DNA of 64,000 nucleotides from Candidatus Foliamicus sp. (GTDB lineage Bacteria > Pseudomonadota > Gammaproteobacteria > Steroidobacterales > Foliamicaceae), in assembly GCA_965249285.1 (NCBI GenBank), contig OZ252226.1, forward strand, positions 1,187,095-1,251,094, written 5' to 3'. The position numbers and the translations under genes were made by a program. Below, piece after piece: positions 8,860 to 31,152 of the stretch (the stretch's first letter is position 1; each line of letters begins with the position of its first letter). The notes beneath the pieces are model-generated. The model made no database searches. It was not told the origin of the DNA and was given only the letters and a program-made list of their open reading frames with translations.

Positions 8860-11421
8860 ATGAGCATTCATCTTCACAGATTTCCGGCCATTCTGTTGGC
8901 CTGCTTACCCTTTGCGGTCCAACCGCTCTTAGCCCAGGAACAGGATGCCCAGCAGGACGGTGACGAACAGGAAGAAGAGGCCCTGGTCGTACCTATTGAG
9001 GTAGAGGCCCCTGAGTTGCGCGTGCAGCAGGGGCGCAGCGAATACAACGCCGAGTTCATCGAGAACATGCCCACAGGACAGGGAGACTTGGCTGACTTGC
9101 TGCGGATGAATCCCGCGGTGGATTTTTCTCGCAGCTCCAATCTTGCCGTCGGCACAGCGACGCTCAGGCCTGCCGAAATCTCGATCCACGGCCAGTTGTA
9201 CTACCAGAATCTATTCCTGATCGATGGCGCGGACACGACCAGCGACATTGATCCTGCGGTTGCGGGCCGGCTCTTAAGCAGTAGTCACACAGGCGATGTC
9301 TACAGTATTCCCAGCCTGTTCGCACCGATAAATGGGAGTTCGCCGCAGGGCTACTACCTGGATGTCGAGTTGCTCGACAAAGTGGAGGTGTACGACAGCA
9401 ATATCCCGGTGGAATACGGTGGCTTTACAGGCGGCGTGGTTTCAGCCCAAGTCAAGTCATACCAGGGAGAAGATACGTTTTCCTGGCATTTCGGCATGCA
9501 GCGGGATGAGTGGGAAGAATTTCATGTCTCCGAAGACGACATCACCTCCAACGACCGGTTCAACGGCGTTTACACGCCCGATTACCAGAAAACCAACTTC
9601 GGATTCAGCATGCAACAGGGCCTTGGCGCGAATCTTGGGCTCACGCTGGGATTGACGCGGCGCCAATCCCGTTTTGCCCAAGAATATGGTGTGGGGCGCA
9701 CGGACATCGTGCGAATGGTCGAATACGAAGACCACATCGACAATCTGATGGGCCGCCTGGACACCAAGCTGGGCAATACCGATGCCGGTCTCTCCTTTCG
9801 TTACGCAACCCGCCGGCACGATGGCATAACAGGGACAAACTACACTGGTGCCTTCAAGAAGGATCACCAGGGCTACGGTTTCACCGTGGACCTGGGCAGG
9901 CCCGTCACCACAGGAATATTGGACCTGATACTCAGTCTTGATCGAACTTCCGATTCACTCGACAGCGAAACAAGTTTCTTTTCCGCCCACGAAGCCTTTG
10001 AGCGCACTGAACTTCAGTATGAGGGCGCCTTCGGGGACATGGAGCAACAACAAACCCGCATCGCTCTCAAGCCAAAATGGAGCCTTGATCCCATCAATCT
10101 CGGTGGTCGTGAACATACCGTCACAATTGGCGGTGAGTATCGCAACACACGCAGCTACTATGAGCGCCCCGAAGATATTGAATTTGAACGCTACGACTGC
10201 ATCAGAGACCTTAGGCCAGGCGATGGTTGTGTGGACCAGGACGGAAGTGGGGACAGCAATACAGGGGATGAAAGGTACGGCGCGCTTCAGTTCTTTTACG
10301 CGGGCAAGGTTGATCTGACTTACAACGAACTTTCGATCTACGCTCAAGACAATATCGACCTCGACAGCTGGCAGGTCAATCTGGGACTGCGCGGGGATTG
10401 GGGTAGTTTCCTGGAAAACTTTGACGTCTCACCGCGCGTCAGCGTGGCGTGGTCGCCCTTTGAAGACGGCAGCGGAGAACTTACCGCGGGCGCCAGCCGC
10501 TACTACGGCAGGAGCTTCTTTCGCTACCAATTGAACGAAGCGATTTGGGGCTGGCGGGAAATCTACTCGTACCTCATCCGATTTACAGGACGGCCAGGCC
10601 AGGAGATGCCTTGCTCCAGACCTGAGTTTCCGCAATGCACGCACCGTACGTATGACAATCGCAGTGGCCTTTTGGAATTGGACACACCTTATTCCGATGA
10701 GATCTCGCTAGGCTGGCGCCAAAGGATTGGCGCCTTCGAGGGTAAATTGCAGTTGCTGACCCGCGAGAGCCGCAAGAGCGTATCCCGGCGGCGCGAGGAT
10801 GACGGGCTTTACTACTACAACAACGACGGCCGTAGTTCCACGCAGAGCGCCACTTTGGAATTGACCAACAGCACACCGCTGGTCCTCGGTCCGACGGAAA
10901 CACGTTTTACGATGGGTCTGGGCTATCGCGATTCCGAAAGTAATGTCTACGACAACGATAGCTACGATGAAACGCTGGAGATCGACCTGATTTATTACAA
11001 GGATCGATTGATTCCTCCTGAAGAACTTCCTGCGTGGGACTACAACGTCCCGCTAAGCGTTCGCTTGAATTCCGTCACAGCGATTCCTGGATGGGGACTC
11101 ACCTGGTCAAATTTCTACATCATTCGTCGTGGTGGAACCGTTGCCGTGGATTTTGGCGAAGATTACGAGAGTCCGGACACCGGCGTGCGATATGACGTCT
11201 ATGAAGATCACGAGTTCGGCAGCTTGTTTACAATCAACTCGCGCATTCAATGGAGCCGTCCGTTGACCAATGGATCAGAAGTCTACGCCCGTTTCGAGAT
11301 TCAAAATTTGCTCGACCGAGTAACAGATACACAAACCCGTCCGTTTGCCGTAAGGCGAATGAGCCGGTTAAACACCCAGGGACGGCGCTTCTGGGTGGAA
11401 GTGGGAATGCGCTACTTCTAG
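8860..11421 (+). CDS. TonB-dependent outer membrane receptor
   Basis: 853 aa, signal peptide, plug region (YLDVELLDKVEVYDSNIPVEYGGFTGGVV), C-terminal GRRFWVEVGMRYF. Confidence 0.9.
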   Translation: MSIHLHRFPAILLACLPFAVQPLLAQEQDAQQDGDEQEEEALVVPIEVEAPELRVQQGRSEYNAEFIENMPTGQGDLADLLRMNPAVDFSRSSNLAVGTATLRPAEISIHGQLYYQNLFLIDGADTTSDIDPAVAGRLLSSSHTGDVYSIPSLFAPINGSSPQGYYLDVELLDKVEVYDSNIPVEYGGFTGGVVSAQVKSYQGEDTFSWHFGMQRDEWEEFHVSEDDITSNDRFNGVYTPDYQKTNFGFSMQQGLGANLGLTLGLTRRQSRFAQEYGVGRTDIVRMVEYEDHIDNLMGRLDTKLGNTDAGLSFRYATRRHDGITGTNYTGAFKKDHQGYGFTVDLGRPVTTGILDLILSLDRTSDSLDSETSFFSAHEAFERTELQYEGAFGDMEQQQTRIALKPKWSLDPINLGGREHTVTIGGEYRNTRSYYERPEDIEFERYDCIRDLRPGDGCVDQDGSGDSNTGDERYGALQFFYAGKVDLTYNELSIYAQDNIDLDSWQVNLGLRGDWGSFLENFDVSPRVSVAWSPFEDGSGELTAGASRYYGRSFFRYQLNEAIWGWREIYSYLIRFTGRPGQEMPCSRPEFPQCTHRTYDNRSGLLELDTPYSDEISLGWRQRIGAFEGKLQLLTRESRKSVSRRREDDGLYYYNNDGRSSTQSATLELTNSTPLVLGPTETRFTMGLGYRDSESNVYDNDSYDETLEIDLIYYKDRLIPPEELPAWDYNVPLSVRLNSVTAIPGWGLTWSNFYIIRRGGTVAVDFGEDYESPDTGVRYDVYEDHEFGSLFTINSRIQWSRPLTNGSEVYARFEIQNLLDRVTDTQTRPFAVRRMSRLNTQGRRFWVEVGMRYF

Positions 11422-15558: not shown

Positions 15559-16218
15559 CTACGCCCCTACGCGCGCACCGTAAGAGGTCTCGGCAAAGCC
15601 CACAAGGCCGCGTCCTTCCAGCGCCGTACCCTCGGTGTTGACTTCCTTGGTGGACAGTCGCCTCAAACGGCACTCTGGTCCAAGTAATTCGCGCAGTTGC
15701 GCCGCGCCGATGGAAAATGGTGGGCCATCCATGGTGTCCGGCGGATATTCGAGGCAATTGATCAGGCCCACCGCACGGAGTGGCAAAAGGCTCAACAGCT
15801 GCCGTGTGTATTTCTTCTGCATTGCCGGTGGCATCGCTACCAGTGCTGCCCGGTCGTAGAAAGCACTGACCGGGCCGACGTCTTCCGCGGTGGCGGAAAA
15901 GAAATCGCCTTGCAGAATGCAGTAGGGTCCGGCAGTCAGGCTACGCAGTGCCCCGACTCGCGAAATGCGCGGCTTGAGCTTCAGTCCGTCAAAGAATGCC
16001 TCGCAGGCGAGCGGACTGACCTCCACGCCAACTACCGCATGCCCCTGCTCCACCAGCCAGCACATATCCAGTGACCTGCCGCACAGCGGCACCAACACCG
16101 CCCCGCCCGCCGCCGCTTCGACCTTCGGCCACCAGGCCTGCAGCGCCTCGTTGATCGACTCCTGGTGAAAGCCGGTCTCGCCCAGCTCCCACTTGTTAAG
16201 CCAAAATCCTGCTTCCAT
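15559..16218 (-). CDS. tpm: Thiopurine S-methyltransferase
   Basis: FWLNKW..GFHQ, VLVPLCGRSLDM, YDRAALVAMP. Confidence 0.9.
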   Translation of the reverse strand: MEAGFWLNKWELGETGFHQESINEALQAWWPKVEAAAGGAVLVPLCGRSLDMCWLVEQGHAVVGVEVSPLACEAFFDGLKLKPRISRVGALRSLTAGPYCILQGDFFSATAEDVGPVSAFYDRAALVAMPPAMQKKYTRQLLSLLPLRAVGLINCLEYPPDTMDGPPFSIGAAQLRELLGPECRLRRLSTKEVNTEGTALEGRGLVGFAETSYGARVGA

Positions 16219-16247
16219 AACGTCCTGGAACCTCCTCACATCCCCCC

Positions 16248-16306: not shown

Positions 16307-18304
16307 TCAATCCGGCAGACTGTAGGCCACAACCGAGTCGCCTTTCTTGTACGGATACACCCAGTTATGCCCGCCCGTAGCCACAACCACGAACTGCTTG
16401 CCGCCGTCCATGTAGGTCATGGGCGTGGCGTTGGCGGATGTGGGGCCTTCGAACTCCCATAGCAGCTCGCCGGTCTCCGTGTCATAGGCGCGGAACCGCT
16501 CGTCAGCCGTAGCGCCGATGAAGACCAGGCCGCCGCCCGTTGCGACCGGTCCGCCGGCAAACGGCGTGCCCCAGCGAAACGGAACGGGGATCGGCGCCAG
16601 CTTGTCAATCAGACCTAAAGGAACTTCCCACTTGATCGTTCCCTCCGCCATGTCCACCGCCACCAGTTTGGCCCACGGAGGCTTGGTGCACGGCATCATG
16701 AACGGAGAGACAAGCGGCCCTTGCTCCAGGCCGTAGTCCGTCCCCTTAATGAACCCGGGCGGCCCGATCGGCAGTCCGGATGTAGGAATGCGGGCTGCTT
16801 CCGGATCGATGTCTTCGTTGGGTATCAGTCGGACCCGGTAGGGAGTCTGGCCTACGGGGGTCACCAGGATATTCCCGTCGGGATCGAAGGCGCCCCCGCC
16901 CCAGTTCATGCCGCCGCCAACGTTCGGCATCATCAGGGTAGTGGTCGTGCTGGGTGGCGTGTAGATTGGACCGTGTCGCATCGATTCGATCATTTCGCGG
17001 CACTTGTTCTTGTCGTACAGGGTGATGCCCCAGGCGTCCTCCGGCGAGATTCCCTGCCTGACCAGCGGCGGTGGCTTCACCGGAAACGGCTGCGTCGGCG
17101 ATACCTCGTCATCCGGCATTCCGTCGGTGGGCACGGGCTGTTCCTCAATCTCGAAGAAAGGCTCGCCGGTATAGCGATGGAAGGTGAACACCATGCCCTG
17201 CTTGGTCAGTTGCATTACCACCGGCACCTGTTCCCCGTCGTGCGTGATCTCGGCCAGGATGGGGCTGGTGGGCAGGTCCCAGTCCCACAGGTCGTGATGC
17301 AGGACCTGGTAGTGCCAGACAAGTTCACCCGTTGCGGCGCGAAGCACGATCAGGGAGTTCGCATACAGGTTGTTGCCGGGCCTGTTGCCGCCATAGAAAT
17401 TGGGAGCAGGACTGGCCGTTGGAATGAACACCAGGTCGTGCGCGCTGTCCCAGGTCATGTTGATCCACGCGTTGGCGCCGCCGACGTGATAAGCCGTGCT
17501 CTCCGGGTCGTCCTGCGGTTCGCGCTTCAGCGTGTCGAAGGTCCACATGTGCTCGCCGGTGCGGGCACTGAAGGCGCGCACTGCGCCGTTCATGGAACTG
17601 GCGTCCTTGAACTTGTCCGCGGTGCCGCCGACGATGATCACGCCGTTGACGACCGCGACCGGAGAGTTCAGCTGCATCGTGAGGAGCTGATTGGTCGGCT
17701 GCAACTGCATGATGACCGGGGTCACGTCGACAAAGCCGTTCTCCCCGAAGCCCGCGCAGGACGCGCCATTGCGGGCATCGATTGCCGCCAGGCGCCGGTC
17801 GTTCGTGGCCAGCAGTATGCGGTGGGCACAAGCCGCTTCTTCCGGCGCTTCCGGATCGCGCCAGTAGGTCACACCGCGGCAATTGAAACGCCCGGCATAG
17901 GGCGTGAGGTCGATCTCAGGGTCAAACTCCCACCGCTCCTGCCCGGTAGCTGGATCCAGCGCAATGATCCGGTTGAACGGATCGCACAGCACCAGATGCC
18001 TTCCTGCCTCTTCAGGCAAGAGTATGGGCGTAACCTGGAAGCCCACCGTGCCGTACAGATGCGGCGCCCGTTCCAGGTGCCCGGTGTTGTAGGTCCAGGC
18101 AATCTCGAGATCGCCCACATTGGAGCGATTGATCTGATTCAGCGGAGAATAACGCGTGCCGCCCTCCTGGCCGGCATACGTAGGCCAGCCGGGATCCTCA
18201 ACGACAGGGTACTCCTCGACCGTACGTTCGCCCCGTTTCCCGCAAGCGTTGAGCGCAACAATCAGCAAGACCAGCGGTAGCCCGCTCCTGGTTATCTTGT
18301 GCAT
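16307..18304 (-). CDS. PQQ-dependent dehydrogenase, glucose/quinate/shikimate family (probable lipoprotein)
   Basis: LNAC lipobox, RYSPLNQINRSNV, CRGV, HDLWDWD, tryptophan-docking repeats, ATPMTY. Confidence 0.9.
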   Translation of the reverse strand: MHKITRSGLPLVLLIVALNACGKRGERTVEEYPVVEDPGWPTYAGQEGGTRYSPLNQINRSNVGDLEIAWTYNTGHLERAPHLYGTVGFQVTPILLPEEAGRHLVLCDPFNRIIALDPATGQERWEFDPEIDLTPYAGRFNCRGVTYWRDPEAPEEAACAHRILLATNDRRLAAIDARNGASCAGFGENGFVDVTPVIMQLQPTNQLLTMQLNSPVAVVNGVIIVGGTADKFKDASSMNGAVRAFSARTGEHMWTFDTLKREPQDDPESTAYHVGGANAWINMTWDSAHDLVFIPTASPAPNFYGGNRPGNNLYANSLIVLRAATGELVWHYQVLHHDLWDWDLPTSPILAEITHDGEQVPVVMQLTKQGMVFTFHRYTGEPFFEIEEQPVPTDGMPDDEVSPTQPFPVKPPPLVRQGISPEDAWGITLYDKNKCREMIESMRHGPIYTPPSTTTTLMMPNVGGGMNWGGGAFDPDGNILVTPVGQTPYRVRLIPNEDIDPEAARIPTSGLPIGPPGFIKGTDYGLEQGPLVSPFMMPCTKPPWAKLVAVDMAEGTIKWEVPLGLIDKLAPIPVPFRWGTPFAGGPVATGGGLVFIGATADERFRAYDTETGELLWEFEGPTSANATPMTYMDGGKQFVVVATGGHNWVYPYKKGDSVVAYSLPD

Positions 18305-18420: not shown

Positions 18421-19368
18421 TCAGCCGTGGGCCGCGAAGTGTTGGGCGAGCGCTTTGAAGCGGCGCCGCAACTCCTGTTCGCCTAAACGAGTCGGTAGCC
18501 TGTCGAAGCCATGTGGCGCGCCCGGGACTTTGTGCAGGTCAACCGGCACATTGCTCGCGCGCAGGCGGCTTGCGTAATCGAGAGATTCTTCGTAGAACAG
18601 GTCCTGATCACCGATGCACAGGTAAGTTGGTGGCAGGCCATCGAGTTGTTGCGCTCTCGCCGGCGATGCGAACGGGGAGACGCTTTGAGAGAAGTCGTTG
18701 GGACTCAAATAGACATCCCATGCGAAACGGTTGTGGTCCGGGCCCCACAGCCAAAAGTCAGCAGCAGCTTCTCGCGCGGCTGTTACGTTGCGGTGATCGA
18801 GCATCGGATAAATGAGGCATTGATACGTAATGGCGCCCGGCCGTTGGTCCCGGCACCGCAAGGCCAACCCGGCCGCCAGGCCACCGCCGGCGCTGGCGCC
18901 GCCGAGTGCGAGCGATTGCGTGTTTAAGGAAAGCGCGTCGGCATTCTCGAGAATCCAGTCCAACGCAGCATCGCAGTCGTCGAGAGCCGCCGGATAAGGG
19001 TGCTCGGGCGCCAACCGATAGTCGACCGCGACAATCAGACAGCCGAGCTCATCGGCCATGCGGCACAGAAGCAACTCGTCCATCTCAGGACAACCCAGAA
19101 TGTAGCCCCCGCCGTGGATCCACAATAGACACGGCCGCAATCCGGGCGCATCGGGGCTCGAATACAGTCGAAGTCGCAGGGTCTGATTGGGGGATGGTCC
19201 AGCAATTGTCTCGTCAGCAACACTGACATGATCGTATCCCTCAATCAGGGCCGCGGCCTCCAGAGACATCCGGTTCAATTCACGTCGCGTCTGCCTGAGA
19301 TTTTCTTTCGTCAAAGCCAGCTGTGGGAATTGATCGAGAAAAGGCAACAGTTCCGGGTTTATGCTCAC
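18421..19368 (-). CDS. Alpha/beta hydrolase (HSL-family esterase/lipase)
   Basis: HGGGY oxyanion motif, GASAGG nucleophile, HGF; GTG start at 19368 with AGGAGG RBS. Confidence 0.9.
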   Translation of the reverse strand: MSINPELLPFLDQFPQLALTKENLRQTRRELNRMSLEAAALIEGYDHVSVADETIAGPSPNQTLRLRLYSSPDAPGLRPCLLWIHGGGYILGCPEMDELLLCRMADELGCLIVAVDYRLAPEHPYPAALDDCDAALDWILENADALSLNTQSLALGGASAGGGLAAGLALRCRDQRPGAITYQCLIYPMLDHRNVTAAREAAADFWLWGPDHNRFAWDVYLSPNDFSQSVSPFASPARAQQLDGLPPTYLCIGDQDLFYEESLDYASRLRASNVPVDLHKVPGAPHGFDRLPTRLGEQELRRRFKALAQHFAAHG

Positions 19369-19526
19369 TACATCAACCTCCTGGGCATCAAGATCGTAGC
19401 GGATTGACCCGCATCTTAATGTGCCTGGGCTCGAGAAACGTCTACAGGCTCGCCAAGAGTCAAGGTTCCGGTAAGGCGAGGCTGCAACAATTGCAGGAAC
19501 CGACACTCACTGATGGGATAAGTAAC

Positions 19527-20234
19527 ATGGGCAGAATTACTCGCCGTGCCGCGATTGCCATGTCCGGAAAGGCGTTACTTGCTCTCGCTGCCTCCGGGCC
19601 GCTTACTCAAGCGGTGTTGGCAAAGGAACCGGAGACGGTCAGCTGGGAGCGATTTCTCGAGTTGTGCCACGAACTATCGAAAACGCAGTTTGCGGAGCGC
19701 TGGAATCAGGAAACGTATACGGCGGACACTCAGCGTTTGGTTCGTCGATTGCGGCTGGATGACCAGAATATCGTTGATTACATCCAACGTTATGAAGACC
19801 TGAACACCCATTTCCCGGAAATCCGCTCCATGCACTACGAGCGCCAATTCATGGTGTCGATGCTGGATTTCGAACCGGGCGAAGAAATTCCCCTGCACGA
19901 TCATCCCGATATGACGGGCGTAGCCTATTGCACGACCGGTCGCGTGGCCGTCGATCACTACGACAGGCTCAAAGAAACGGCGGGGAACGGCAATCCGCTG
20001 CTCCGATTCGAGCGTCATATTGAAATGACCGCCGGAGACACTGCCGCGCTGACAGTCGACAAGGGCAATATCCATACTCTCAAAGCCAGCAGGTTCACGC
20101 GCATGATCGATCTGTTCACGCCGCCTTACGACCGTGATCGGGTGACACGAGCCAGGTACTACGCGAAGGATTCGTCCCCATACCGCGGCCGCAACGGAAT
20201 ATTCGAAGCGGAGACTTCGGTCAGCCCTTTCTAG
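19527..20234 (+). CDS. Tat-exported cupin, cysteamine dioxygenase/plant cysteine oxidase (ADO/PCO)-like
   Basis: MGRITRRAAIA...AVLA twin-arginine signal; IPLHDHPDM, GNIH, DLFTPPYD, RYY motifs. Confidence 0.75.
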   Translation: MGRITRRAAIAMSGKALLALAASGPLTQAVLAKEPETVSWERFLELCHELSKTQFAERWNQETYTADTQRLVRRLRLDDQNIVDYIQRYEDLNTHFPEIRSMHYERQFMVSMLDFEPGEEIPLHDHPDMTGVAYCTTGRVAVDHYDRLKETAGNGNPLLRFERHIEMTAGDTAALTVDKGNIHTLKASRFTRMIDLFTPPYDRDRVTRARYYAKDSSPYRGRNGIFEAETSVSPF

Positions 20235-20300
20235 TACTCAAACGAATCAGTTGGAGACATGGAAGTTGGAGATTGCAAGAACCACCACTTGAGTTCGTAT

Positions 20301-21170
20301 CTAACGGAGAAGCGCCACCGTGCTCCGGGTAAGTGTCCGGGCCACCCGGAAACCAAGGCTCGGACTGCGGTCGTCGGCGGCGCTGGCGAAGCGGACCGCG
20401 GAGCGCAGGTCATACGGAAAGTCGTCGTGGGAGCCGCCGCGCAAGACTCGCTGCGAGCAGTCGCCGCTGAGCCAGGCATCTCCATTCGAGGGGGCGCCGG
20501 AATAATTCTCGTTCCAGCAGTCCTCGACCCACTCCCATACATTGCCATGCATTTCGTGCAAGCCAAACGCATTGGCCTTGAATGATCCCACCGGGGCGGT
20601 CTGCACAAAGTCCCATTGGGTGGTACAGCCACCACAATTGGCTCTTCCCTGACCAATTTCGTTCCCCCAGGTGAATTGGGTCGTCGACCCCGCCCGGGCC
20701 GCGTATTCCCACTCGGCTTCCGTCAATAGCCGGTAGGTCTGTCCAGACTGCGACGACAACCAGGCCACGTATTCCCTGGCGTCATTCCATGACACATTGA
20801 TGATCGGCCGCCGCTCTCGCCCCCAGCCTTCGTCATCCACTTTGTCCGGATTCGCAAAGCGGTCGTAATCCTCGAACGTGATCTCATACTTCGACACGGC
20901 AAAAGGCTGCGAGAAGGATACGGTGTGTACCGGCTTCTCATCTTCGTAGCATTCCTGACCCGACACGCAGCCCATCCGGAAACTGCCGGCGGGAATCACT
21001 ACCATCTCAGGACCGCTCCCGCCCGCCTGAAGCGCGTCCGAGAAAGTATCCCCCGGCTGAGGCAGCGGAGGGCTCGAACCCTGCAACATCTCATCCGGCT
21101 GCGCCGCCGCTACCTCAGCAAGAATCATTGCGAAAGCGGCCAGAGCGAACATTGCCAAGACCTTCTTCAT
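20301..21170 (-). CDS. Secreted formylglycine-generating enzyme-like (FGE-sulfatase/SUMF1) domain protein
   Basis: EMVVIPAGSFRMG, RLLTEAEWEYAARAG, GNVWEW, RVLRGGS, GFRVAR. Confidence 0.9.
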   Translation of the reverse strand: MKKVLAMFALAAFAMILAEVAAAQPDEMLQGSSPPLPQPGDTFSDALQAGGSGPEMVVIPAGSFRMGCVSGQECYEDEKPVHTVSFSQPFAVSKYEITFEDYDRFANPDKVDDEGWGRERRPIINVSWNDAREYVAWLSSQSGQTYRLLTEAEWEYAARAGSTTQFTWGNEIGQGRANCGGCTTQWDFVQTAPVGSFKANAFGLHEMHGNVWEWVEDCWNENYSGAPSNGDAWLSGDCSQRVLRGGSHDDFPYDLRSAVRFASAADDRSPSLGFRVARTLTRSTVALLR

Positions 21171-21284: not shown

Positions 21285-22707
21285 TCAGAGGGCGTTGGCC
21301 AATTGCTGATATGCCCTGCGTCCTTCGTCCGCCGCCGGCCCATAGTGCTGCAGGCCATCCAGTTCGGAATGGGCAAACGCAATGCGCCCATAATTCTCCC
21401 GAAGCGTATCGCGCGGCGCCGAGCCATTTGCGCCGCCATAGAACCCGGGATACGGGACCGAGTAGGCGTGGCCCCAGCGATTGAGTATGACGCCTGCCAC
21501 ATCGACGCTCGGATCGAATCCAGCCGTGCCGAACAGTCGCAACATTTGCCGATAGATTCTTGTCTCGTACTCTGAGTAAGGGGCGCTCAGCAATTCTGCG
21601 CGGCCGAGCGTGACCTGCGCCATGGGGTCCAGCCCCGGCGAATGAAAGGGTGTATAGAAGGAAAGAACGGCCGGCTTGTTCGGGTCAAGCGGCGGCCGGT
21701 AGTCTCCCACATGCATGGGACTGCGGATGTTGCAGGTAAAGCCGAATCCGTCGCTCTGCTTGTCCCAGATTGCGGCGGTAATGCCGAGTTTGTAAAGAAA
21801 ACGCCAATTCGTTAACGCGACGTTCGCGACCAAAAATGGCGCGTGCAGAAAACTCTCGCACGCCTCGCGATAGGACGCCGGCAAATCATGAATGATGTAT
21901 CGATTGATCCAGCTCCCCGAAGCCATCACTACAGCCTTGGCTTTGATTCCGTGGTATCTCCCGTTGCGCGCATAAACCACCGACACTGAACCGGCTTCTC
22001 TCGGTGCTCCGTCGTGTGAAACATACATTGCCGTCGCACTGGCCCGCATGCGTATCGGTTGACCTGCTCGATCCAAAGCGCCGGGGTTGATCCGACGGGT
22101 AATGATGTCTTCAAAACTCGCCCCGCCTTCGATAGCGTCCGGGATCAGGCGTTTCAGAAAATACCGGACGAAGCCGGAATTTCCACCGGGAAACGAGACC
22201 CGCCGGCTGCCTTCTGGCATTGGCCCTAAAAAACCGGGCATCGGCAACTGGTAGGCGGCGTAGGCCGACACGCTGTCGCTCCCCAGCCCGCACGCGGATG
22301 CCAGGCACAAATCCGCGTAGCGTATTCCCTCGTCGCCGAGCTTCAACTCGTTGCTGCGAGAACTCAAGCGCCGCACCCAATCCCGCCATCCCCGCGCCGA
22401 CGATCACAAGATCGATTTCTTCGACCGAATCCAATTGACCAAAATCAGTCGAAGATTGTCGATCAAGAATGCGATGCGCCGTCTCGACTACTTCCGGCGA
22501 ATTGCCGTGCGAGTGACGGTACGACCCAACGCCGCCGTACCCATACCAGTCGGCTCCAAGCGATGGTTCTATTGGATTAGATGCCGTCTGGCAATAGGTG
22601 GGAATTGCGCGCGCCGTCAGGGCAGCACCGGCTCCAATCGCCATGCCATTCACGAAGTCGCGCCGCGTAATGTGCCTACCGAACCGAGGTCGCCGAGTCT
22701 TGCTCAT
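21285..22707 (-). pseudogene. Tat-exported FAD oxidoreductase (spermidine dehydrogenase-like), frameshifted and probably internally deleted
   Basis: N-part ITRRDF Tat signal, HGN, IVGAGMAG in ORF 22111-22707; C-part NRWGHAY, RIAFAHSEL in ORF 21285-22376; frames switch near 22360. Confidence 0.7.
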
Positions 22708-22849: not shown

Positions 22850-23227
22850 CTAAAACGCCATCTCGTTGATATCATCGGCGGTCGTCGGTTCCGGCGGCGT
22901 TCCGTCCTGGAAGGACTCGGGCCACTCCCAGTCCACATCCGGGTTCAGCACCGGAAACGGCAACGCCTCCGGAGATCCCAACAGCTTCAATCCCCAATAG
23001 GCCCAGTTGCGCCGGTCGAATAGGCCTGGTGGGGCATTTCGGTAAGCATCCCGGAACTGTTCGTCGGAAAACAGCGTGTGAGCCTCCAGAATGTCGTCGA
23101 CCGATCCACGGGCCATTGTTTCGGTCAAGAGTTGGCGGGGTTTGGCAGCCACGTCTTCCGGCGGCTCATACCAATTGACGTTGCGCGCCAAGCGGATCAG
23201 TCGGGCGTGGGAATCGGACACGGTCAA
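22850..23227 (-). CDS. Small protein coupled to the nucleotidyltransferase, putative antitoxin
   Basis: ATGA overlap with upstream NTase; 125 aa with aromatic helical motif. Confidence 0.55.
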   Translation of the reverse strand: MTVSDSHARLIRLARNVNWYEPPEDVAAKPRQLLTETMARGSVDDILEAHTLFSDEQFRDAYRNAPPGLFDRRNWAYWGLKLLGSPEALPFPVLNPDVDWEWPESFQDGTPPEPTTADDINEMAF

Positions 23228-23922
23228 GGATCGGTATCTGGATGAGCGTTGGGCATCACGGGAGCAACAAGACCGATCAGACCCCTCGGAGCCGGACAGG
23301 GAATGTTGCCCACGTCGACGGATTCAACCGCCTTTTCAAGCTGTCGCCGGTCGGCCGGGGACAACCCCTCCAGCGCCGGCGGGTAACTCAACATACGCAG
23401 AGTGATGTATGGATTGAATTGTTCCCCATAAATTGTTTTCGCAAAGCCGAGCCCCTTCGGCAGCGATAGTTCCGTTTGGCGTAAAACGGCGCAAATATCT
23501 GCCAGGTCCTTGCCGCTCTGACGCTTCTGAATTGTGGCGCACTTGCAACCGAATACGTCGCACACGTCGGCAATCCGCACGCCGGGCGCAAACTCCAGCG
23601 GGCTCTTGACGGTTCGTAACTTCAGACCCCCAAAGAAACTCACGGACACTGGGCCGTCTTCCGTGCCAACCTGCACCGTCAGAGTGTTGCGTTCTTCTTG
23701 GGTAATCTTGCTCCCGGCCAAGAAATCCAGTTGCTCACGCAGTTGCCGGGGGACGAACGGGCGCGAACTGAAGAAATCGAAATCCACGCTGCTGCGATGC
23801 CCGAGTTGCAGCGCCAACGCAGTGCCGCCATACAGCACAAAATGCTCCGGCAAACCCTCAAGCCGTGCCCAGAGGCGCTGTTGAGCCGACGGCAGAATGT
23901 TCCAATACGGAGCTTGATTCAA
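23224..23922 (-). CDS. AbiEii/AbiGii-family nucleotidyltransferase toxin
   Basis: LYGGTALALQLGHRSSVDFDFF motif, K..TI..R...KDLADI. Confidence 0.85.
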   Translation of the reverse strand: MNQAPYWNILPSAQQRLWARLEGLPEHFVLYGGTALALQLGHRSSVDFDFFSSRPFVPRQLREQLDFLAGSKITQEERNTLTVQVGTEDGPVSVSFFGGLKLRTVKSPLEFAPGVRIADVCDVFGCKCATIQKRQSGKDLADICAVLRQTELSLPKGLGFAKTIYGEQFNPYITLRMLSYPPALEGLSPADRRQLEKAVESVDVGNIPCPAPRGLIGLVAPVMPNAHPDTDP

Positions 23923-24194: not shown

Positions 24195-25544
24195 CTAGCC
24201 TGATTCGGCAGGTCCCGACTTGAAAATTTCCAGCATTCTTACAATGCTCCTCTCGAAAGTCGGATCTGTTCCCCGTGTATCGTCGCGACTCAGCACTTCT
24301 TCGCCAACCTCAACGGCACGATCCGTTTCGCCCAGGCGACCCAAGATACCCATGTACGTCGATGCAATTTTGGCCGTCGGCTCCATCGAATACGCTTTCG
24401 CACTGAGATCAAGGGCGCGTTGTTGAATTTCGGGCGTGTCGGCCATGGAGAGGTGCATCGCGAAACTGGTGTAGTCCGACCCGGTTAAGGTATCTCCCGC
24501 AGCTGCAATCTTCTCATCCGTTTCGGCGAGCATGACGTCCCATGCTTTCGTGGCGGTGAGGTAGGAATTTCGGCCCAGTTTCTCAAGATAGGACTTGTAG
24601 AGGTAGTCATTTTCAATTTCGCTAATCTGGATTTCGTAGGCGCGCGCCAATTCGCCATCCAGTTGATCGATATAGCGGGTATAGTCGGCATCGCCTTGAC
24701 GGGATGATAGAGCGACAGAAACTTTTATGCTCTCAAGTACGAGAAAGGCTATGCGAGACTCCTCGACTACTTCCGCGTACGCATCGTAGTGTTGCACCAC
24801 AAACTCGATCCACTCATTCTCTCGAGGAACGCTCGACAGGAAACTGCTGAAAAGATCGAAATCTTCCGCATTGATAAGTGATTCTGGCTCGACGCTGTCA
24901 ACATACTCATTAAATGCTGCAGTCAGTGCTGCGCGGCGCGCCATATATTCCGGCTGCATAAAGGCAGCTGTCACCGACTCTCCCGAGAACGACTCAGTTG
25001 TTAGCACGTATCGGCCCTCTACCAGATAGTCTTTGACGAGGTCGCGATCACGATCACCGGTATCGTATTTTTTCTCAAGCGCGGCAAACACCTGGCGTTC
25101 CTCGCCCATTGCCTCTCTTGCAACCGCAATGAACAACTCGGGTTTGAACGTACCGCCAACGGAATATTGCAATGTTCCGTCAGGTTTGATGTACAAATAG
25201 GTTGGATAGGCCGAGACACCGTATATGTTCGCCAATTCCGGGCCACGTATCGAAAAATCTTCCGCGTCCAGTTTGAAATTAACAAAGTGCTCGTTGTAAT
25301 AGGCACCAACATCTGCGCGTGGAAAGACGTTCAGATCCATGAGTTTGCACGGACCGCACCAACTCGTATAGACATCGACGAAGACCAGTTTGTCTTCGGC
25401 CCCTGCCTTTTCGAGAGCGGCATCAAAAGAACCCTCAAAGAACACGATTCCTGATTCGTCAACAACTTCCGCTCTCTCGCCCGCACTGCAAGCCGCAAGA
25501 AAAACTGCAACCAGCAAAGCGGCGATTACACGCAAACCGCTCAC
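24195..25544 (-). CDS. Thioredoxin-domain lipoprotein with helical C-terminus (paralog 3)
   Basis: LAAC lipobox, VDVYTSWCGPCK, YDTGDRD motif. Confidence 0.85.
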   Translation of the reverse strand: MSGLRVIAALLVAVFLAACSAGERAEVVDESGIVFFEGSFDAALEKAGAEDKLVFVDVYTSWCGPCKLMDLNVFPRADVGAYYNEHFVNFKLDAEDFSIRGPELANIYGVSAYPTYLYIKPDGTLQYSVGGTFKPELFIAVAREAMGEERQVFAALEKKYDTGDRDRDLVKDYLVEGRYVLTTESFSGESVTAAFMQPEYMARRAALTAAFNEYVDSVEPESLINAEDFDLFSSFLSSVPRENEWIEFVVQHYDAYAEVVEESRIAFLVLESIKVSVALSSRQGDADYTRYIDQLDGELARAYEIQISEIENDYLYKSYLEKLGRNSYLTATKAWDVMLAETDEKIAAAGDTLTGSDYTSFAMHLSMADTPEIQQRALDLSAKAYSMEPTAKIASTYMGILGRLGETDRAVEVGEEVLSRDDTRGTDPTFERSIVRMLEIFKSGPAESG

Positions 25545-26884
25545 AGGCCAAGCTCCTTCATCTCTTGGGTAAATCGATCGATCATGAATTGTCCGCGGTC
25601 GCCACCCATTTCCTCAAATTCCGCGAGCGCCTGCGCGTAAAACTCGCGAGCCTTTTCTTTCTCGCCCATTGTCGCCATAAAGTGACCGTAATCTGTTGCC
25701 ACGTACGAATTGTAGAAATTCTCGTACGCGTACTTGATGAACTTCTCGGTCTCGGGGTAGAACTCCTCGCCGCCCTCCGTCATACGCAGCCGGCGATAGT
25801 AGATAAGAAACTGAGACGCACCCAGGAGTTCTTTGCCTTCCATCACAAAGTCCCAACCGTGCTTCAAGTAACCGGCGAAGTCCCCCTGCGACATCGCGTG
25901 CTCCTGTTCACCCAAAGATGTCAGGACTTTGACCGGATCAACAATGTCCGCGTCGTTGAAGGCGTACGCTTTCGCCAGCTTCGTGTCGATGTCTTTGACG
26001 TATTCTTCGAACAACTCCCGATTGCCTGCGGCGCCAGCGTCGTTAATACCCGTGTAATTGGCGTTCATCAAGAATGTGCCGAACTCCTCCTCGTTCGGGA
26101 GGACAGCGACATATTCGTCATAGTGGTCGATCATATATTCGATATATTCGTGACCTCGACTAAGTTTCAATGTAGCGCCAAGGTTGTTTTTGAGAATCTG
26201 AAAATCATCCTCAGTCACTAACTGAGACGGTGGATGGCTGTTCACGTACTCGTGCAGCGCCGCCACAATTTTTCCACCCAGGGCCTGCTCTTCCGGTATG
26301 GCGGGCAATTCGAAATTGGCCATTACTTTGGCCCCCTCGAGAATGTAGCTGCGAACCAGGTCGGCATCGCGATCTCCGGCTTCGTACCGATCCGCAACCA
26401 TCTGAAACTCAATGGCCGGATCTTCACCGAGAACAGACTTCCCAACCGCAATGAACACAGCGGGATCCATCAATCCATTGCGGCGGCGCATAAGCTCTCC
26501 GTTCTTATCCATGTACAAATAGCTCGGAAACCCGAACGCACCATACTTTTCAGCGAACGCCGGACCGTCGGAGTCCGGATCCTCGGCATCGATCTTCCAG
26601 TTAATGTAATTCGCGTTGTAGTACTCGCCGACATCGTCTCGCGAGAAAACATCGGCGACCATTACCTTGCACGGGCCACACCACTCCGTGTAAACGTCGA
26701 CGAAAATCGGAAGATCTCGTTCCTGTGCCATCGCGAGCACGTCGGCAAAATTGCCCTCGACGAACACCATTCCACCTGATGCTTCCGTCATCTGCTTGTT
26801 TTCCTGCTCGGCTCCGCAACCATTCAGAGCTAGCGAAACGATGGCACAGGTCACTATTGCCAGGTAATTGTTCTTGATATCCAT
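25541..26884 (-). CDS. Thioredoxin-domain lipoprotein with helical C-terminus (paralog 2)
   Basis: LNGC lipobox, VDVYTEWCGPCK, YEAGDRD motif; start set at MDIKNN. Confidence 0.85.
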   Translation of the reverse strand: MDIKNNYLAIVTCAIVSLALNGCGAEQENKQMTEASGGMVFVEGNFADVLAMAQERDLPIFVDVYTEWCGPCKVMVADVFSRDDVGEYYNANYINWKIDAEDPDSDGPAFAEKYGAFGFPSYLYMDKNGELMRRRNGLMDPAVFIAVGKSVLGEDPAIEFQMVADRYEAGDRDADLVRSYILEGAKVMANFELPAIPEEQALGGKIVAALHEYVNSHPPSQLVTEDDFQILKNNLGATLKLSRGHEYIEYMIDHYDEYVAVLPNEEEFGTFLMNANYTGINDAGAAGNRELFEEYVKDIDTKLAKAYAFNDADIVDPVKVLTSLGEQEHAMSQGDFAGYLKHGWDFVMEGKELLGASQFLIYYRRLRMTEGGEEFYPETEKFIKYAYENFYNSYVATDYGHFMATMGEKEKAREFYAQALAEFEEMGGDRGQFMIDRFTQEMKELGL

Positions 26885-26985
26885 AACGAATTCATTCCTC
26901 TTGCCGTAGTTCGGCACAGACGCACATATGAAGTTTCCATGTATTAAAAAGCGCACGAATACTCGACGCACGCGCTAACATCGCA

Positions 26986-28356
26986 CTACTGAATGAGCTC
27001 CGTCTCAAGCTGAAACAGCGTAAGCTCGAACAAATCCCACGCACGCTCATCAACGCCGTCGTCCAATTCCCGGCCCGCCAATATCTTGTGACCCAACTGC
27101 ACCGCAGCTTCGCCGTCTCCCGCTTGTTGCAGGTGATACATATAAGTCATCGCCACCATCGGCGCAGGTTCCAGTTCAAGGGCTTTTCTTGCGTAGTGCA
27201 TTGACTTCCGACGCCATTCGGGATCGGGCGCCCGTTCAAACTGTTGCATCGCCGCAGCATAGTCCTGAGCAGTAACCGCCTGTCCCTTCTGCGCCAGCAT
27301 TTCCTCGGTCGACGCGTACAAAGCTTCCCAATCCTGCTGGGTTGGCTCATAGTGGAGTTGACCAAGTTTCTCGAAATATTCCTTGTAAAGGTACTCATTG
27401 TGCACGGTTTCCAACTGAACGCTGTAAGCCGCTGCAAGATCGCCATCAAGTCTGGCAATATCGTCTACATAAGACGAGTCTCCCGCCTGTGCCTTTTCGG
27501 CAACCGTGCTCTTGATATCTTCGAGAAGGTAGACGGCCACGCTGGTCTCCGGGACAAACTCGACAAAGCGAGCATAGTTGTCTGTGACGAATTTGACGGT
27601 TTTCGGATCCCGCTTAGGGCCCGATTCGTACGTCCGGATTAACGCGAAGTCCTCGCGATTAATGGTATCGCTCAGATTTCGGCGGGCCTTGTACGCCTCG
27701 TAATTTTTCCCCTGTTTGAAACTGAACAGCCAGCCTTCTTTCGAGCGCTGTGTTCCGGGCACATTATTGCTGGCGAGCACCAGATAAGCGCGAACGAAAT
27801 CCAGGTCGCGCTCGCCACTTTCGTAACGCGCTGACATTTCTGCAAAAAGCGTGTCGGTTTCGCCTCGCATCTTGCGGCCGAATCTGACGAACGCATCTGG
27901 CTCAAAATAGCCGAAGCCTTTGTCAACGTGCTCACCGTTTCCATTGAGGATCAGATAGGTCGGCAGCACTTCGACGCTGTTTGGCCCCGCCAACTCGGGA
28001 CCGTCAAAAACCTCGGCTTCCTGGTCACGCTTGATGACGACGAAATTATCGTTGAAGTACGAACCTACACCGGGATCCGTAAACACATTCAGGTCCATCA
28101 TTTTGCAGGGTGCACACCAGGTCGTGTAGACGTCCACCATGACCAGCTTGTCTTCCGCCGAGGCCTTTGCAAGCGCATTTTCGTAACTGCCGTCAAATAA
28201 CTCAATCCCTTGCGCGCCGGCGACGATTCCAGGTTCGGCATCATCCCGTTCCGCACATGCGCTCAGCAAAAAAACGGCTGGCAGCGCCAACAGCACTGCC
28301 AGCCGAATCGATCTGATTCTTGCTTTGTCAGCGGCCTGCCGATTCGTCAATACCAT
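26986..28356 (-). CDS. Thioredoxin-domain lipoprotein with helical C-terminus (paralog 1)
   Basis: LSAC lipobox, VDVYTTWCAPCK, YESGERD motif. Confidence 0.85.
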   Translation of the reverse strand: MVLTNRQAADKARIRSIRLAVLLALPAVFLLSACAERDDAEPGIVAGAQGIELFDGSYENALAKASAEDKLVMVDVYTTWCAPCKMMDLNVFTDPGVGSYFNDNFVVIKRDQEAEVFDGPELAGPNSVEVLPTYLILNGNGEHVDKGFGYFEPDAFVRFGRKMRGETDTLFAEMSARYESGERDLDFVRAYLVLASNNVPGTQRSKEGWLFSFKQGKNYEAYKARRNLSDTINREDFALIRTYESGPKRDPKTVKFVTDNYARFVEFVPETSVAVYLLEDIKSTVAEKAQAGDSSYVDDIARLDGDLAAAYSVQLETVHNEYLYKEYFEKLGQLHYEPTQQDWEALYASTEEMLAQKGQAVTAQDYAAAMQQFERAPDPEWRRKSMHYARKALELEPAPMVAMTYMYHLQQAGDGEAAVQLGHKILAGRELDDGVDERAWDLFELTLFQLETELIQ

Positions 28357-28401: not shown

Positions 28402-31152
28402 CTAAAAGTCAAAGTCTTTGCGCAGTGTTGCGAAAATAACTCGACCACGCGTGTCGATGCGACGAAGATCGAATGGCCCGCCGAATCCAGCAGCAAACGG
28501 GAACTCACGATCGAACAGATTGCGGGCACCGACGGTAAGGTCGATTTGCGCTCGCTCAAACGTGTAGTTCGCAGAAAAGTCCCAGGTTGTATAGCTGCCA
28601 ATGGTCGGCGCTTCAGCGTAAAAAGCAGAGAACGCAACAGGTGCTTCGGTATTCCGGTAGCTGTCGGTGTGGTTTCCGAATAGTCGGACACTGTAGTTAT
28701 CACGCAGCCATTCGAAAGTGAATGTCCCCACCAGTTCGTTCGGGCTGCTACTCGTGCCAAGACGCTCCCGAGGCGTTTCGCCGGGGGCGATAATGTCTTC
28801 GAATGTTATCGTTCGAACACCATCAAGCCGAACGGAAAAATCACCGGCGCCATTGTTCCAGGAATAGCCGATCGCGAAATCGACACTTTCAACATTTCGT
28901 TGGGCCACATTGATCGGAAAGAGCGTCAGACTGACCAGATCGTTTGTCACCGGGTCGCGTGCAGCGAACCCTGGAAACAGCTGTGGGTTGGCAAGAATAA
29001 AGTCGAATCCAAATGCTGAAAGCGGGTTGGCCGTAATTCTGTCTTCGTACTCAACGTCAGAATAGTTCAAAGATATCTGCAGGCCCTGAATGGCACTGGG
29101 ACTCCAGTCGAATCCAACATTGATTGTTGTCGCAAATTCCGGCTCCAGCGACGGATTGCCGCTACGGTCGGAGAATGGGAATGCCACAGTCCCCTGAACA
29201 GGATCAAATAGCGGGAATGTACCGGGCGTGAGCGCCTGAACATATGCTCCCACCACCTGAGTCAGGTTTGGCGCCTTGAACGACTCGCCCCAGCTCGCCC
29301 GCAAGCTGAACGTCTCGGTCGCGTCCCACCTGACCGCCAGCCTCGGGCTGAAATTGCTCAAAGTCCGACCGTTAATCGGCCCACTCAGAATGGCTTCAAG
29401 TGCGGGGCTAACAGGCCTTGGCTGACCATCGAGTGGTGGCGGTGCACTGGAATCAACCTCGTATTCTTCCCATCGGCCCTGCACGACAGCATTGACAGTC
29501 TCAGCTAACGGGATTGAATTTTCGAAGAATAGCGCTGTGACGGTTTGCTTGGGTTTTGTGTCCGCAAGCGTACCATTGAGAAGACCAATCTCGTCCGCGC
29601 TTTGGTCCAGTTCTTCGCTCCGGTATTCAGCGCCAAGCACCACCTCCCATGCGCCCGCCGGAAGCTCAAATACTTCGCCGACAACGTGGCCATTAATATT
29701 GGCCAAACGCGATTTACGCGTTCGGTCGAAGACAACACCATAGGAGTCCAGCACGGCATCAATATTCTGCGCCGTACCGTTACCAAACGGGTTAATCCGG
29801 TCCGCAAGGATCGTATTGCCAAAGATGTCGTAGCCAATTGAAAGTGCTTGATTTTCGGAACTGCCGTAACCAGCGGCGACATCCAATACCCAGCCGCTAT
29901 CGCCGAGCTCTGTCAAGAAACCCGCATTGAGCGTCAGGTCCTTTGAGTCGTTTTCCGTGCCGCCGTAAGGAATCAATCCAGCATTCGTCTCGGAAAGTAG
30001 ATACGACCCAACGAACACCGGAAATCCGAGCGTATTGAGCGGATTTCCGGTCATGTTGACCGGATCCCAGGGTTGGACCAGACCGATAAAAAATGGCGCG
30101 TTTAGCTGCGACGTCGTATCGCCCTCCGATACGTAGATCTCGGTGAAAAAGCTCGACGACTCGCCGAAGCGCTGCTCAAAAAAAACGGTCAATGCCAAGC
30201 TCTCCACTTCGGCTGTCTGCTGCAATGGCACGTTGTCCGCGGGCACAATATTGAGTGGGCTCAAGTCAAAGAACGTAAAGGACGTGCCGTCGAAATCGGC
30301 CGGCAGTGAGCCAAATCCAAATACATTTCCGGGCTGCGTCAAGAACGTGTTGCGCGCGTCCGGCCCCCCCCGACTTGTGTAATCCAGGGTGGTAAAGCCC
30401 GTTTCTGCGGTGATGACCGGATCGGTTTTGCTGTGGACGACCGTGGCGGTCAGGTTACCCGTGTCCCAACCGAAACCAGCAAGCTGGCTGATCTCAAACT
30501 TGTCGGACTCCGTCGAGCTGTTTTGGTAGGACAGCGTCGTTGTGGCGCCCTCGTAGTCTTTTTTCAGAATAAAGTTGATCACGCCGCCGAGCGCATCTGA
30601 GCCGTAGGTTGCCGATGCACCATCGAGTAGCACCTCGACGCGCTCGATCGCGGCGGCGGGAATTTTCGACAAATTGACCTGCGTGCCGTTGAACCCGGCC
30701 GATCCAACCGAACGGCGCCCATTAATCAGGACCAGCGTGGCATTGCTTCCCAGCCCGCGCAGGTCGGCTGCTGCTTCGCCCTGCCCGAAACTGCCGACGG
30801 GAATTCCGTCACCGCCGACCGGTTGCGAGATACCCCGCGCCCGATTGATGGTCGAGAAGTTCTGCGGAATGCTCGCGATGATGTCCTCGGCCGTCGTAAA
30901 TCCTCGTGCATCGATGGAGTCTCGATCGATGACGATGACCGGCGAGGTCCGGTGAGCACTGGTCAGCCGACTGCCGGTAACAACTATCGGCTCAAGAGTA
31001 TCTTCGTCCGTGTCGGCCAAGGCGCTTGCATCGTCTTGTGCAATGGAAGAATACGGAGCCATACCTACCGCACACAATATTGCGGCGAAAAATAATCTGT
31101 TTTTTTGTGCTGTACGTCTTTTCGCACAGCGAATGAAGTATCGAACGTTCAT
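28402..31152 (-). CDS. TonB-dependent outer membrane receptor
   Basis: EPIVVTGSRL TonB box, IERVEVLLDGASATYGSDALGGVINFIL plug, C-terminal Phe. Confidence 0.92.
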   Translation of the reverse strand: MNVRYFIRCAKRRTAQKNRLFFAAILCAVGMAPYSSIAQDDASALADTDEDTLEPIVVTGSRLTSAHRTSPVIVIDRDSIDARGFTTAEDIIASIPQNFSTINRARGISQPVGGDGIPVGSFGQGEAAADLRGLGSNATLVLINGRRSVGSAGFNGTQVNLSKIPAAAIERVEVLLDGASATYGSDALGGVINFILKKDYEGATTTLSYQNSSTESDKFEISQLAGFGWDTGNLTATVVHSKTDPVITAETGFTTLDYTSRGGPDARNTFLTQPGNVFGFGSLPADFDGTSFTFFDLSPLNIVPADNVPLQQTAEVESLALTVFFEQRFGESSSFFTEIYVSEGDTTSQLNAPFFIGLVQPWDPVNMTGNPLNTLGFPVFVGSYLLSETNAGLIPYGGTENDSKDLTLNAGFLTELGDSGWVLDVAAGYGSSENQALSIGYDIFGNTILADRINPFGNGTAQNIDAVLDSYGVVFDRTRKSRLANINGHVVGEVFELPAGAWEVVLGAEYRSEELDQSADEIGLLNGTLADTKPKQTVTALFFENSIPLAETVNAVVQGRWEEYEVDSSAPPPLDGQPRPVSPALEAILSGPINGRTLSNFSPRLAVRWDATETFSLRASWGESFKAPNLTQVVGAYVQALTPGTFPLFDPVQGTVAFPFSDRSGNPSLEPEFATTINVGFDWSPSAIQGLQISLNYSDVEYEDRITANPLSAFGFDFILANPQLFPGFAARDPVTNDLVSLTLFPINVAQRNVESVDFAIGYSWNNGAGDFSVRLDGVRTITFEDIIAPGETPRERLGTSSSPNELVGTFTFEWLRDNYSVRLFGNHTDSYRNTEAPVAFSAFYAEAPTIGSYTTWDFSANYTFERAQIDLTVGARNLFDREFPFAAGFGGPFDLRRIDTRGRVIFATLRKDFDF

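Follow-up and report, generated by a model that had tools for sequence, protein, structure and literature searches.

A gene for a predicted exported thiol dioxygenase of the PCO/ADO family was analysed computationally in a stretch of 64,000 nucleotides from contig OZ252226.1 of Candidatus Foliamicus sp. (this whole stretch is referred to as the window, and coordinates are positions in it unless another locus is named). The gene product is proposed to be a periplasmic Fe(II) thiol dioxygenase that is exported via Tat (twin-arginine translocation) and oxidises a small aminothiol to the sulfinate, and a probability of roughly 60% was given to this reading. It builds on membership of the protein family, conservation of the active site, the fold, a conserved export signal and the stand-alone organisation of the gene, which were established in the analysis. 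The coding sequence and its domain are located as follows:

19527-20234, + strand: coding sequence of the predicted exported PCO/ADO-family thiol dioxygenase homologue (235 aa plus stop; from open reading frame and translation)
19818-20171, + strand: cupin beta-barrel core, about residues 98-215 (stretch matched by Pfam PCO_ADO 99-215; strands of the structure model E98-E198)

The open reading frame (ORF) of 235 codons starts with MGRITRRAAIAMSGKALLALAASGPLTQAVLAKE, and every motif that a preliminary description of this DNA had listed was found in the translation where it had been placed. In a Pfam scan the protein matched PCO_ADO (PF07847) at E = 7.3e-18, with 65.2 bits where the gathering score is 27. 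The next matches were Cupin_2 (17 bits) and Cupin_1 (11.7 bits), both under their own cutoffs; CDO_I (PF05995) gave no match even at E <= 10, and none of the NCBIfam naming models matched. PF07847 was present in all 71 homologues. A phmmer search against the PDB sequences returned human and mouse ADO at 1e-9 and the Arabidopsis proteins PCO4, PCO5 and PCO2 at 4e-9 to 8e-7, and a profile of 29 homologues reached PCO4 at 3e-17 and ADO at 2e-16, with bacterial cysteine dioxygenase (CDO) at 2.6e-5. The agreement of motifs and Pfam match with PCO_ADO is, judged by these comparisons, far beyond chance. Public databases name the protein 'hypothetical protein' or 'cupin domain-containing protein' (NCBI), 'Cysteine dioxygenase' (an automatic name in UniRef) or 'cysteamine dioxygenase' (JGI).

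The predicted fold leads to the same family. An AlphaFold2 model was built on a 29-sequence alignment and had a mean pLDDT of 85.5 and a pTM of 0.79, with disorder limited to residues 1-23 in the region of the signal peptide. The modelled fold is a cupin barrel with an N-terminal helical extension, for which PCO and ADO are the nearest solved structures: all of the top 22 Foldseek matches in the PDB were PCO4, PCO5, PCO2 or ADO (E about 4e-14 to 4e-11), with a TM score of about 0.6 across 200-229 alignment columns. A second tier, at E about 1e-9 or weaker, consisted of CDO, 3-mercaptopropionate dioxygenase and ergothioneine dioxygenase. On sequence and predicted structure together, the protein is assigned to PCO_ADO rather than to CDO or other cupin families. 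The preliminary description had claimed an ADO/PCO homologue, and the claim was borne out by the Pfam score without a CDO_I match, by the family profile, in which PCO_ADO was far ahead of CDO, and by the structural comparison with ADO, in which PCO4, PCO5, PCO2 and ADO lead the list.

The export signal was examined in a set of 69 full-length relatives, one per species and 28-90% identical to the window protein, which was also used for the residue conservation given below. It occupies the first residues of the protein:

19527-19622, + strand: predicted Tat-type signal peptide, residues 1-32 (n-region T5-R6-R7, h-region A16-A32; cleavage between V30-L31-A32 and K33, by inspection)

The twin-arginine motif of the window protein reads T5-R6-R7-A-A-I-A, and signal peptidase would likely cut after residue 32, between V-L-A and K-E. 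The pair R6-R7 is kept in 68 of the 69 relatives, the remainder of the first 35 residues varying freely. In Gammaproteobacteria the motif takes the form [ST]-R-R-x-x-[IL]-x-x-S and in Verrucomicrobiota the form D-R-R-x-F-I-[KR]-T-S, which is near the textbook S-R-R-x-F-L-K. Where the proteins come from Planctomycetota, Lentisphaerae or Myxococcota, RR and a hydrophobic stretch are followed by a lipobox-like L-x-G-C. A strict Tat-like rule (RR, then within 8 residues at least 13 uncharged residues, at least 45% of them hydrophobic) was passed by 59 of the 69 family members (86%) against 35 of 554 neighbour ORFs (6%), and in eight of the ten misses the h-region is broken by a single Lys or Arg. 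Lipobox-like sites were found in 15 of 156 family members. Given the conservation of RR and the lipobox-like Cys in some phyla, Tat-type export is read as a property of the whole clade. The Tat pathway transports folded, cofactor-loaded proteins. No tatABC genes lie inside the 64-kb window, which was the part of the genome covered.

The start codon on which the signal depends is supported by several observations. Homologues from several phyla start at the same Met, about five residues ahead of RR, the RefSeq gene calls in four cultured species share this N-terminus, and nucleotide conservation among relatives ends about 70 nt upstream of the ATG. Between RR and the first conserved helix the only other in-frame Met is Met12, which lies inside the signal. 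Among 147 representatives of clusters at 50% identity, most full-length proteins carry the signal and a minority of about 190 aa begin at the first helix, from which it follows that cytoplasmic bacterial forms exist as well. These short, distant members lend something to the idea that the window protein is itself cytoplasmic, the signal being a start-codon artefact or an N-terminal anchor with the enzyme facing the cytoplasm. That idea is highly improbable, since the Met-x3-4-RR start is conserved across phyla and agrees with the RefSeq calls, the sole alternative start falls within the signal, RR is strongly constrained as other signal residues vary, and the hydrophobic stretch leads into a cleavage motif of the AxA-like or lipobox-like kind. 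The Tat export asserted in the preliminary description was accordingly supported, with a start codon that leaves the signal in place.

For the active site, ADO residue numbers were transferred by a HMMER alignment to the ADO chain. The elements, all on the alignment, are:

19887-19913, + strand: I121-P-L-H124-D-H126-P-D-M129 with the first two metal His (human ADO H112, H114), 69/69
20064-20075, + strand: G180-N-I-H183 with the third metal His (human ADO H193); N181 and H183 69/69
20109-20129, + strand: D195-L-F-T-P-P-Y201 with the predicted catalytic Asp (ADO D206) and the predicted substrate-contacting Tyr (ADO Y212), 69/69
20151-20162, + strand: A209-R-Y211-Y212, with Ala at the position of ADO Cys220 and Tyr211 corresponding to ADO Tyr222
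19863-19865, + strand: Leu113 at the position of ADO Phe101 (L51/V12/I6 of 69)
19929-19931, + strand: Cys135, clade-specific and near-invariant (68/69; Val in ADO, Leu in PCO4)

Residues H124, H126, H183, D195 and Y201 are each invariant in the 69 relatives; the longer motif stretches DLFTPPYD and RARYY correspond to residues 195-202 and 208-212. In ADO, H112, H114 and H193 are the metal ligands, D206 is catalytically essential and hydrogen-bonds the substrate amine and a water at the O2 site, Y212 forms a hydrogen bond to the hydroxyl or thiol of the substrate, and Y222 is a second Tyr near the substrate and the partner of C220 in a Cys-Tyr cross-link (PMC12098869). All residues that were experimentally shown to be important for ADO catalysis (H112, H114, H193, D206, Y212) are, according to the alignment, kept clade-wide. 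The cross-link Cys, already reported as missing in the preliminary description, is replaced by Ala209 in the window protein, so that no Cys-Tyr cross-link is expected; in the relatives this position is S47/A13/T3/C2, with 63 of 69 having Ser, Ala or Thr there, and position 211 is Trp in 37 and Tyr in 31.

A difference that bears on the substrate concerns F101 of ADO, which pi-stacks on the amide of the first peptide bond of the substrate and whose exchange raised the dissociation constant (KD) for peptide by 80-113-fold at most (PMC12098869). Phe is found at this position in ADO, PCO4 and PCO5, and Leu, Val or Ile in all 69 relatives. Because the residues that would hold amine and thiol are kept and the residue that grips the peptide bond is lost, a small aminothiol is favoured as substrate; the aliphatic residue by itself weakly favours a small molecule over a protein.

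The same position weighs against a true N-terminal cysteine oxidase, an extracytoplasmic counterpart of ADO and PCO that would carry out O2-dependent sulfinylation of exported envelope proteins or secreted peptides. The protein shares family and catalytic residues with the protein-modifying ADO and PCO, the periplasm is where signal peptidases create mature N-termini, and export across phyla suggests a dedicated extracytoplasmic role. Against these points stand the absence of the amide-stacking Phe from all relatives, with the effect on peptide binding that its exchange had in ADO, and the lack of a conserved candidate substrate gene nearby in 81 loci. No periplasmic pathway is known to read an N-terminal Cys sulfinate, and the N-terminal Cys thiols of lipoproteins are already acylated. 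Such a function is considered unlikely, and the same low rank is held by the related proposal of envelope N-terminal cysteine oxidases that act on exported bacterial or host proteins and peptides, with Cys135 as a clade-specific redox or cross-link feature.

Cys135 lies nine residues after the second metal His and is found in 68 of the 69 relatives, across phyla; a cross-link, a second-sphere function or a redox switch are candidate roles. Together with Trp40 and Trp59, further hallmarks of the exported clade in the 69-relative alignment, and the aliphatic residue at ADO F101, it could mark a different substrate, either a thiol that is not a 2-aminothiol (3-mercaptopropionate, mercaptosuccinate, glutathione, homocysteine or thiohistidine) or, for a cupin oxygenase of another kind, a non-thiol. 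Identity of the clade to ADO and PCO is only about 20%, bacterial enzymes of the sister family CDO have branched out to 3-mercaptopropionate, and the fold matches include an ergothioneine dioxygenase. However, Asp195 and Tyr201, whose ADO counterparts contact the amine, the thiol-mimicking hydroxyl and the O2 site, are invariant, and the clade has no invariant Arg for a carboxylate, unlike CDO and 3-mercaptopropionate dioxygenase: the position of Arg192 is R34/Q33 and that of Arg208 is R39/K15. A substrate outside the 2-aminothiols is therefore regarded as improbable, although somewhat less so than an N-terminal cysteine oxidase.

The locus is syntenic with a second Candidatus Foliamicus sp. 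metagenome-assembled genome (MAG), OZ253475.1, at 93-97% nucleotide identity; NCBI taxonomy places Candidatus Foliamicus in the Gammaproteobacteria, order Candidatus Foliamicales. Further close relatives are MAGs with the isolate names SB06xx, COS, RHO and IRC, which may be sponge-metagenome bins, to judge by the resemblance of their names to those of such bins; ankyrin-repeat, sulfatase and sulfotransferase genes abound on the contigs of these MAGs. Members of the family are also found in Woeseiaceae, Azotimanducaceae and Endozoicomonas numazuensis, in many Akkermansiaceae and other Verrucomicrobiota, and in Planctomycetota, Lentisphaera and Myxococcota. An exhaustive search returned 84 clusters at E <= 1e-30 and 582 at E <= 1e-10. 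Lake, river and sediment MAGs of Verrucomicrobiota, Planctomycetota and Myxococcota carry the family to the same degree, so that a host origin of the substrate is optional. For gammaproteobacterial sponge symbionts, a genome-scale modelling study employs hypotaurine as a key sponge-derived source of carbon, energy and sulfur; that study does not mention cysteamine (PMC11685487).

The proposed periplasmic small-aminothiol dioxygenase would work as follows, where the metal, its loading in the cytoplasm, the chemistry, the substrate and the physiological purpose are what we infer from the features described above. The protein would be made with its twin-arginine signal, fold in the cytoplasm and bind Fe(II) there; MncA, another Tat-exported cupin, reportedly acquires its metal in that compartment. 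The folded enzyme would then cross to the periplasm via Tat, and anchoring as a lipoprotein is probable in some other phyla. A substrate whose thiol and free amine sit on neighbouring carbons would bind the Fe at His124, His126 and His183 in bidentate fashion, Asp195 and Tyr201 would act as Asp206 and Tyr212 do in ADO, and O2 would turn the thiol into the sulfinate. The likeliest substrates are small, such as cysteamine, which would yield hypotaurine, or a short peptide with an N-terminal Cys, e.g. Cys-Gly. The sulfinate may be imported as a source of carbon, nitrogen, sulfur or energy; alternatively, the enzyme may serve to clear reactive thiols from an oxidising compartment.

Several points weigh against this proposal. 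No taurine or hypotaurine transporter or catabolic gene is adjacent to the gene in the window or in the 80 other loci, and the lake, river and sediment carriers mean that the sponge and hypotaurine link is not general. ADO oxidises cysteamine despite having the amide-stacking Phe, which makes the loss of this residue indirect evidence on the substrate. ADO and PCO lack a counterpart of the near-invariant Cys135, which may signal a chemistry unlike the ADO/PCO template. Finally, an Fe(II) enzyme in the oxidising periplasm is chemically awkward.

In the window the gene stands alone between a divergent Abhydrolase_3 esterase gene (18421-19506, -) and a convergent gene for a signal-bearing FGE-sulfatase-domain protein (20301-21170, -). 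A conserved operon or partner gene was sought by comparison of six contexts, by ORF clustering in the 81 loci and by a Pfam scan, and only synteny among close relatives emerged. The commonest neighbour family in the all-against-all clustering was present in 10 of the 81 loci, and the 118 immediate flanking genes contained 145 Pfam families with no common theme. That no partner gene is conserved agrees with what would be expected if the enzyme is self-sufficient and its substrate is a diffusible compound. The short region upstream of the gene is conserved:

19458-19526, + strand: conserved upstream block, putative own promoter and 5' untranslated region (conserved in Foliamicus and related MAGs)

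The nucleotide similarity of the relatives begins at 19458, 69 nt before the ATG, and farther upstream both sequence and synteny differ. The block holds TGCAACAAT at 19483-19491, which reads TG[CT]AACAAT in the sponge-type MAGs, and a Shine-Dalgarno-like GGGA at 19515-19518, 9-12 nt ahead of the ATG. It probably comprises the extended -10 promoter and the ribosome-binding site of a monocistronic gene, the extended -10 being read from conservation alone. A consensus scan scored neither a canonical sigma-70 promoter nor an intrinsic terminator, and no riboswitch or other known RNA was matched upstream of the gene in Rfam. The window at 19450-19457 and its closest relative, locus L020, at 5739-5931 differ by an indel of about 190 bp, exactly at the upstream edge of the block. 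Locus L009 of a congener shares on the upstream side only the 781-bp unit 19458-20238, i.e. promoter plus gene. From this indel and from the 781 bp shared with L009, the gene with its short upstream region is taken to be a unit amid reshuffled surroundings.

In one gammaproteobacterial clade (6 loci) znuA and znuCB lie beside the homologue, with znuA convergent and tail to tail to it. The znu-adjacent loci were recorded as L025-L030 and L033 (about 6749-7720, -) and L002 (1-5735), the homologue in L002 following a cluster of znuBC and genes for a Fur-family regulator, PRA-CH, CobW and a WD40 protein. The znu adjacency, together with the Fur-family regulator, CobW GTPase and PRA-CH ahead of the gene in one genome and the example of MncA as a Tat-exported metal-binding cupin, would suit a non-enzymatic periplasmic cupin that buffers or delivers zinc, manganese or iron. 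This is very unlikely, because the zinc adjacency is found in a single syntenic clade with znuA convergent and not co-transcribed, and the non-ligand Asp and Tyr are as invariant as the ligands, beyond the need of a mere metal binder. A zinc or Zur link, considered because of znuABC and of Fur and CobW in L002 and L005, was rejected on the same confinement to one clade and the convergent znuA.

A link to sulfatase maturation through the FGE-type neighbour was likewise discarded: only 2 of the 118 flanking genes belong to the FGE-sulfatase family, the window copy is PvdO-like, and it is absent from L009. The best NCBIfam match of the protein encoded at 20301-21170 (-) is PvdO-like, at 209 bits where the cutoff is 500. 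Both the window and L020 have this gene between the dioxygenase gene and a flavoprotein gene; in L009 it is missing, and the latter two abut tail to tail. The flavoprotein gene is intact in L009 (6714-8651, -), where it encodes 645 aa with a Tat-type N-terminus, MSKTRRPRFGRHITRRDFVNG..., followed by DLVIVGAGMAGLG. The window copy, a second gene for a protein with a Tat-type N-terminus 2 kb away from the dioxygenase gene (21285-22707, -), has lost about 509 bp internally, a length not divisible by 3, which leaves two overlapping ORFs, and the copy in L020 (about 8019-9388) is missing a different piece of 227 bp. These lesions look like independent decay or assembly errors. Neither of the two window ORFs had a Pfam match at E <= 1e-5, and for the intact L009 protein no NCBIfam model came near its cutoff. 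Genes for a protein of the thiopurine S-methyltransferase (TPMT) family and for a PQQ-dependent dehydrogenase whose N-terminus is lipoprotein-like are located 1.2-4 kb upstream of the dioxygenase gene (15559-16239, - and 16307-18304, -) and are syntenic in L020 only.

Elsewhere in the window, three paralogues in tandem at 24195-28356, 28402-31206 and 31268-33369 (all -) are thioredoxin-like proteins of the DsbH or Thioredoxin_7 type, about 450-476 aa long, with signal- or lipoprotein-like N-termini and an adjoining TonB-dependent receptor; of the two ORFs that follow, the N-termini resemble those of a sensor kinase and of a response regulator. L020 shares the initial 2 kb of this envelope thiol-redox cluster (as far as 26146), and in L004 the dioxygenase homologue has a DsbD-type fusion encoded upstream. 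A toxin gene of the AbiEii nucleotidyltransferase family (23224-23922, -) overlaps by 4 nt a downstream ORF of 125 aa (22850-23227, -), which has no Pfam match and is conserved in three Foliamicus-related loci; the two may form a type IV toxin-antitoxin pair. The ORFs at 46922-48262 (-) and 62599-63939 (-) both encode 446 aa with identical N-terminal sequence, and the product of the former is a group II intron reverse transcriptase/maturase (RVT_1 and GIIM). In the 51-60 kb region, several ORFs may be parts of mobile elements.

In the literature covered, which took in phylogenetic papers on PCO and ADO and excluded most subscription journals, no mention was found of bacterial, periplasmic or Tat-exported PCO/ADO members, and nothing relevant in this context on 'Candidatus Foliamicus'; prior characterisation of exported homologues, which the preliminary description had named as a threat to novelty, was thus not met with there. 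If the proposal is true, the periplasm would be a site of thiol-to-sulfinate chemistry through a Tat-exported clade that spans Gammaproteobacteria, Verrucomicrobiota, Planctomycetota, Lentisphaerae and Myxococcota. This would bear on the processing of aminothiols and the feeding of the hypotaurine and taurine pool by bacteria, including sponge symbionts, on the metal supply and upkeep of Fe(II) oxygenase activity outside the cytoplasm, and on how the oxygen sensors ADO and PCO of eukaryotes arose in evolution. Protein substrates or a role in oxygen sensing, if found, would raise the interest further. The hypothesis is directly testable, since four cultured species carry the gene: Rubritalea tangerina (WP_377087956.1), Endozoicomonas numazuensis (WP_081869617.1), Roseibacillus ishigakijimensis (WP_200391477.1) and Oceaniferula spumae (WP_435893196.1).

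Among known systems, human and mouse ADO (PDB 7REI, 8U9J, 9DXB, 7LVZ) belongs to the same PCO_ADO family and has the same fold (Foldseek E about 4e-13, TM about 0.6), with the 3-His site and the pairs D206/D195, Y212/Y201 and Y222/Y211 in common. The window protein differs in an identity of about 20%, in its length (about 203 aa in the predicted mature form against 270 aa), in Ala209 for Cys220 and Leu113 for Phe101, and in the additional near-invariant Cys135; ADO is moreover a protein of eukaryotic cells without a signal peptide, unlike the Tat-signalled window protein. Arabidopsis PCO4, PCO5 and PCO2 (PDB 6S0P, 7CHJ, 6SBP, 7CHI, 7CXZ) gave the best profile (3e-17) and structure (4e-14) matches and share the motifs H-x-H-P-x-M-T, N-I-H, D-x-x-x-P-P-Y and Y-[YF]. 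PCO4 and PCO5 keep Phe at ADO F101 and Cys at ADO C220, whereas the exported clade is aliphatic at the former and mostly without Cys at the latter. In plant cells PCOs oxidise the N-terminal Cys of ERF-VII transcription factors and feed the N-degron pathway; no N-degron-type pathway is known from the bacterial periplasm. The bacterial CDO and 3-mercaptopropionate dioxygenases (PF05995; PDB 4QM9, 6XB9, 4TLF) are likewise 3-His Fe(II) cupins that convert thiols to sulfinates, but they form a separate Pfam family with a profile E-value 12 orders of magnitude weaker than that of PCO4. CDO-type enzymes work with a Ser-His-Tyr triad, and for the carboxylate of the substrate they have an Arg (PMC10966181). 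The window protein has instead the Asp and Tyr of the N-terminal cysteine oxidase type. MncA of Synechocystis is similar in principle only, being a cupin that is reportedly exported folded by Tat after its metal has been chosen in the cytoplasm; it is a Mn bicupin without thiol dioxygenase motifs. The literature found treats CDO, 3-mercaptopropionate dioxygenase, ADO, PCO and the mercaptosuccinate and ergothioneine dioxygenases as intracellular, without mention of export or a signal peptide. What appears to be new in the exported clade is, by comparison, a known family and chemistry in a new compartment, with active-site differences that are specific to the clade.

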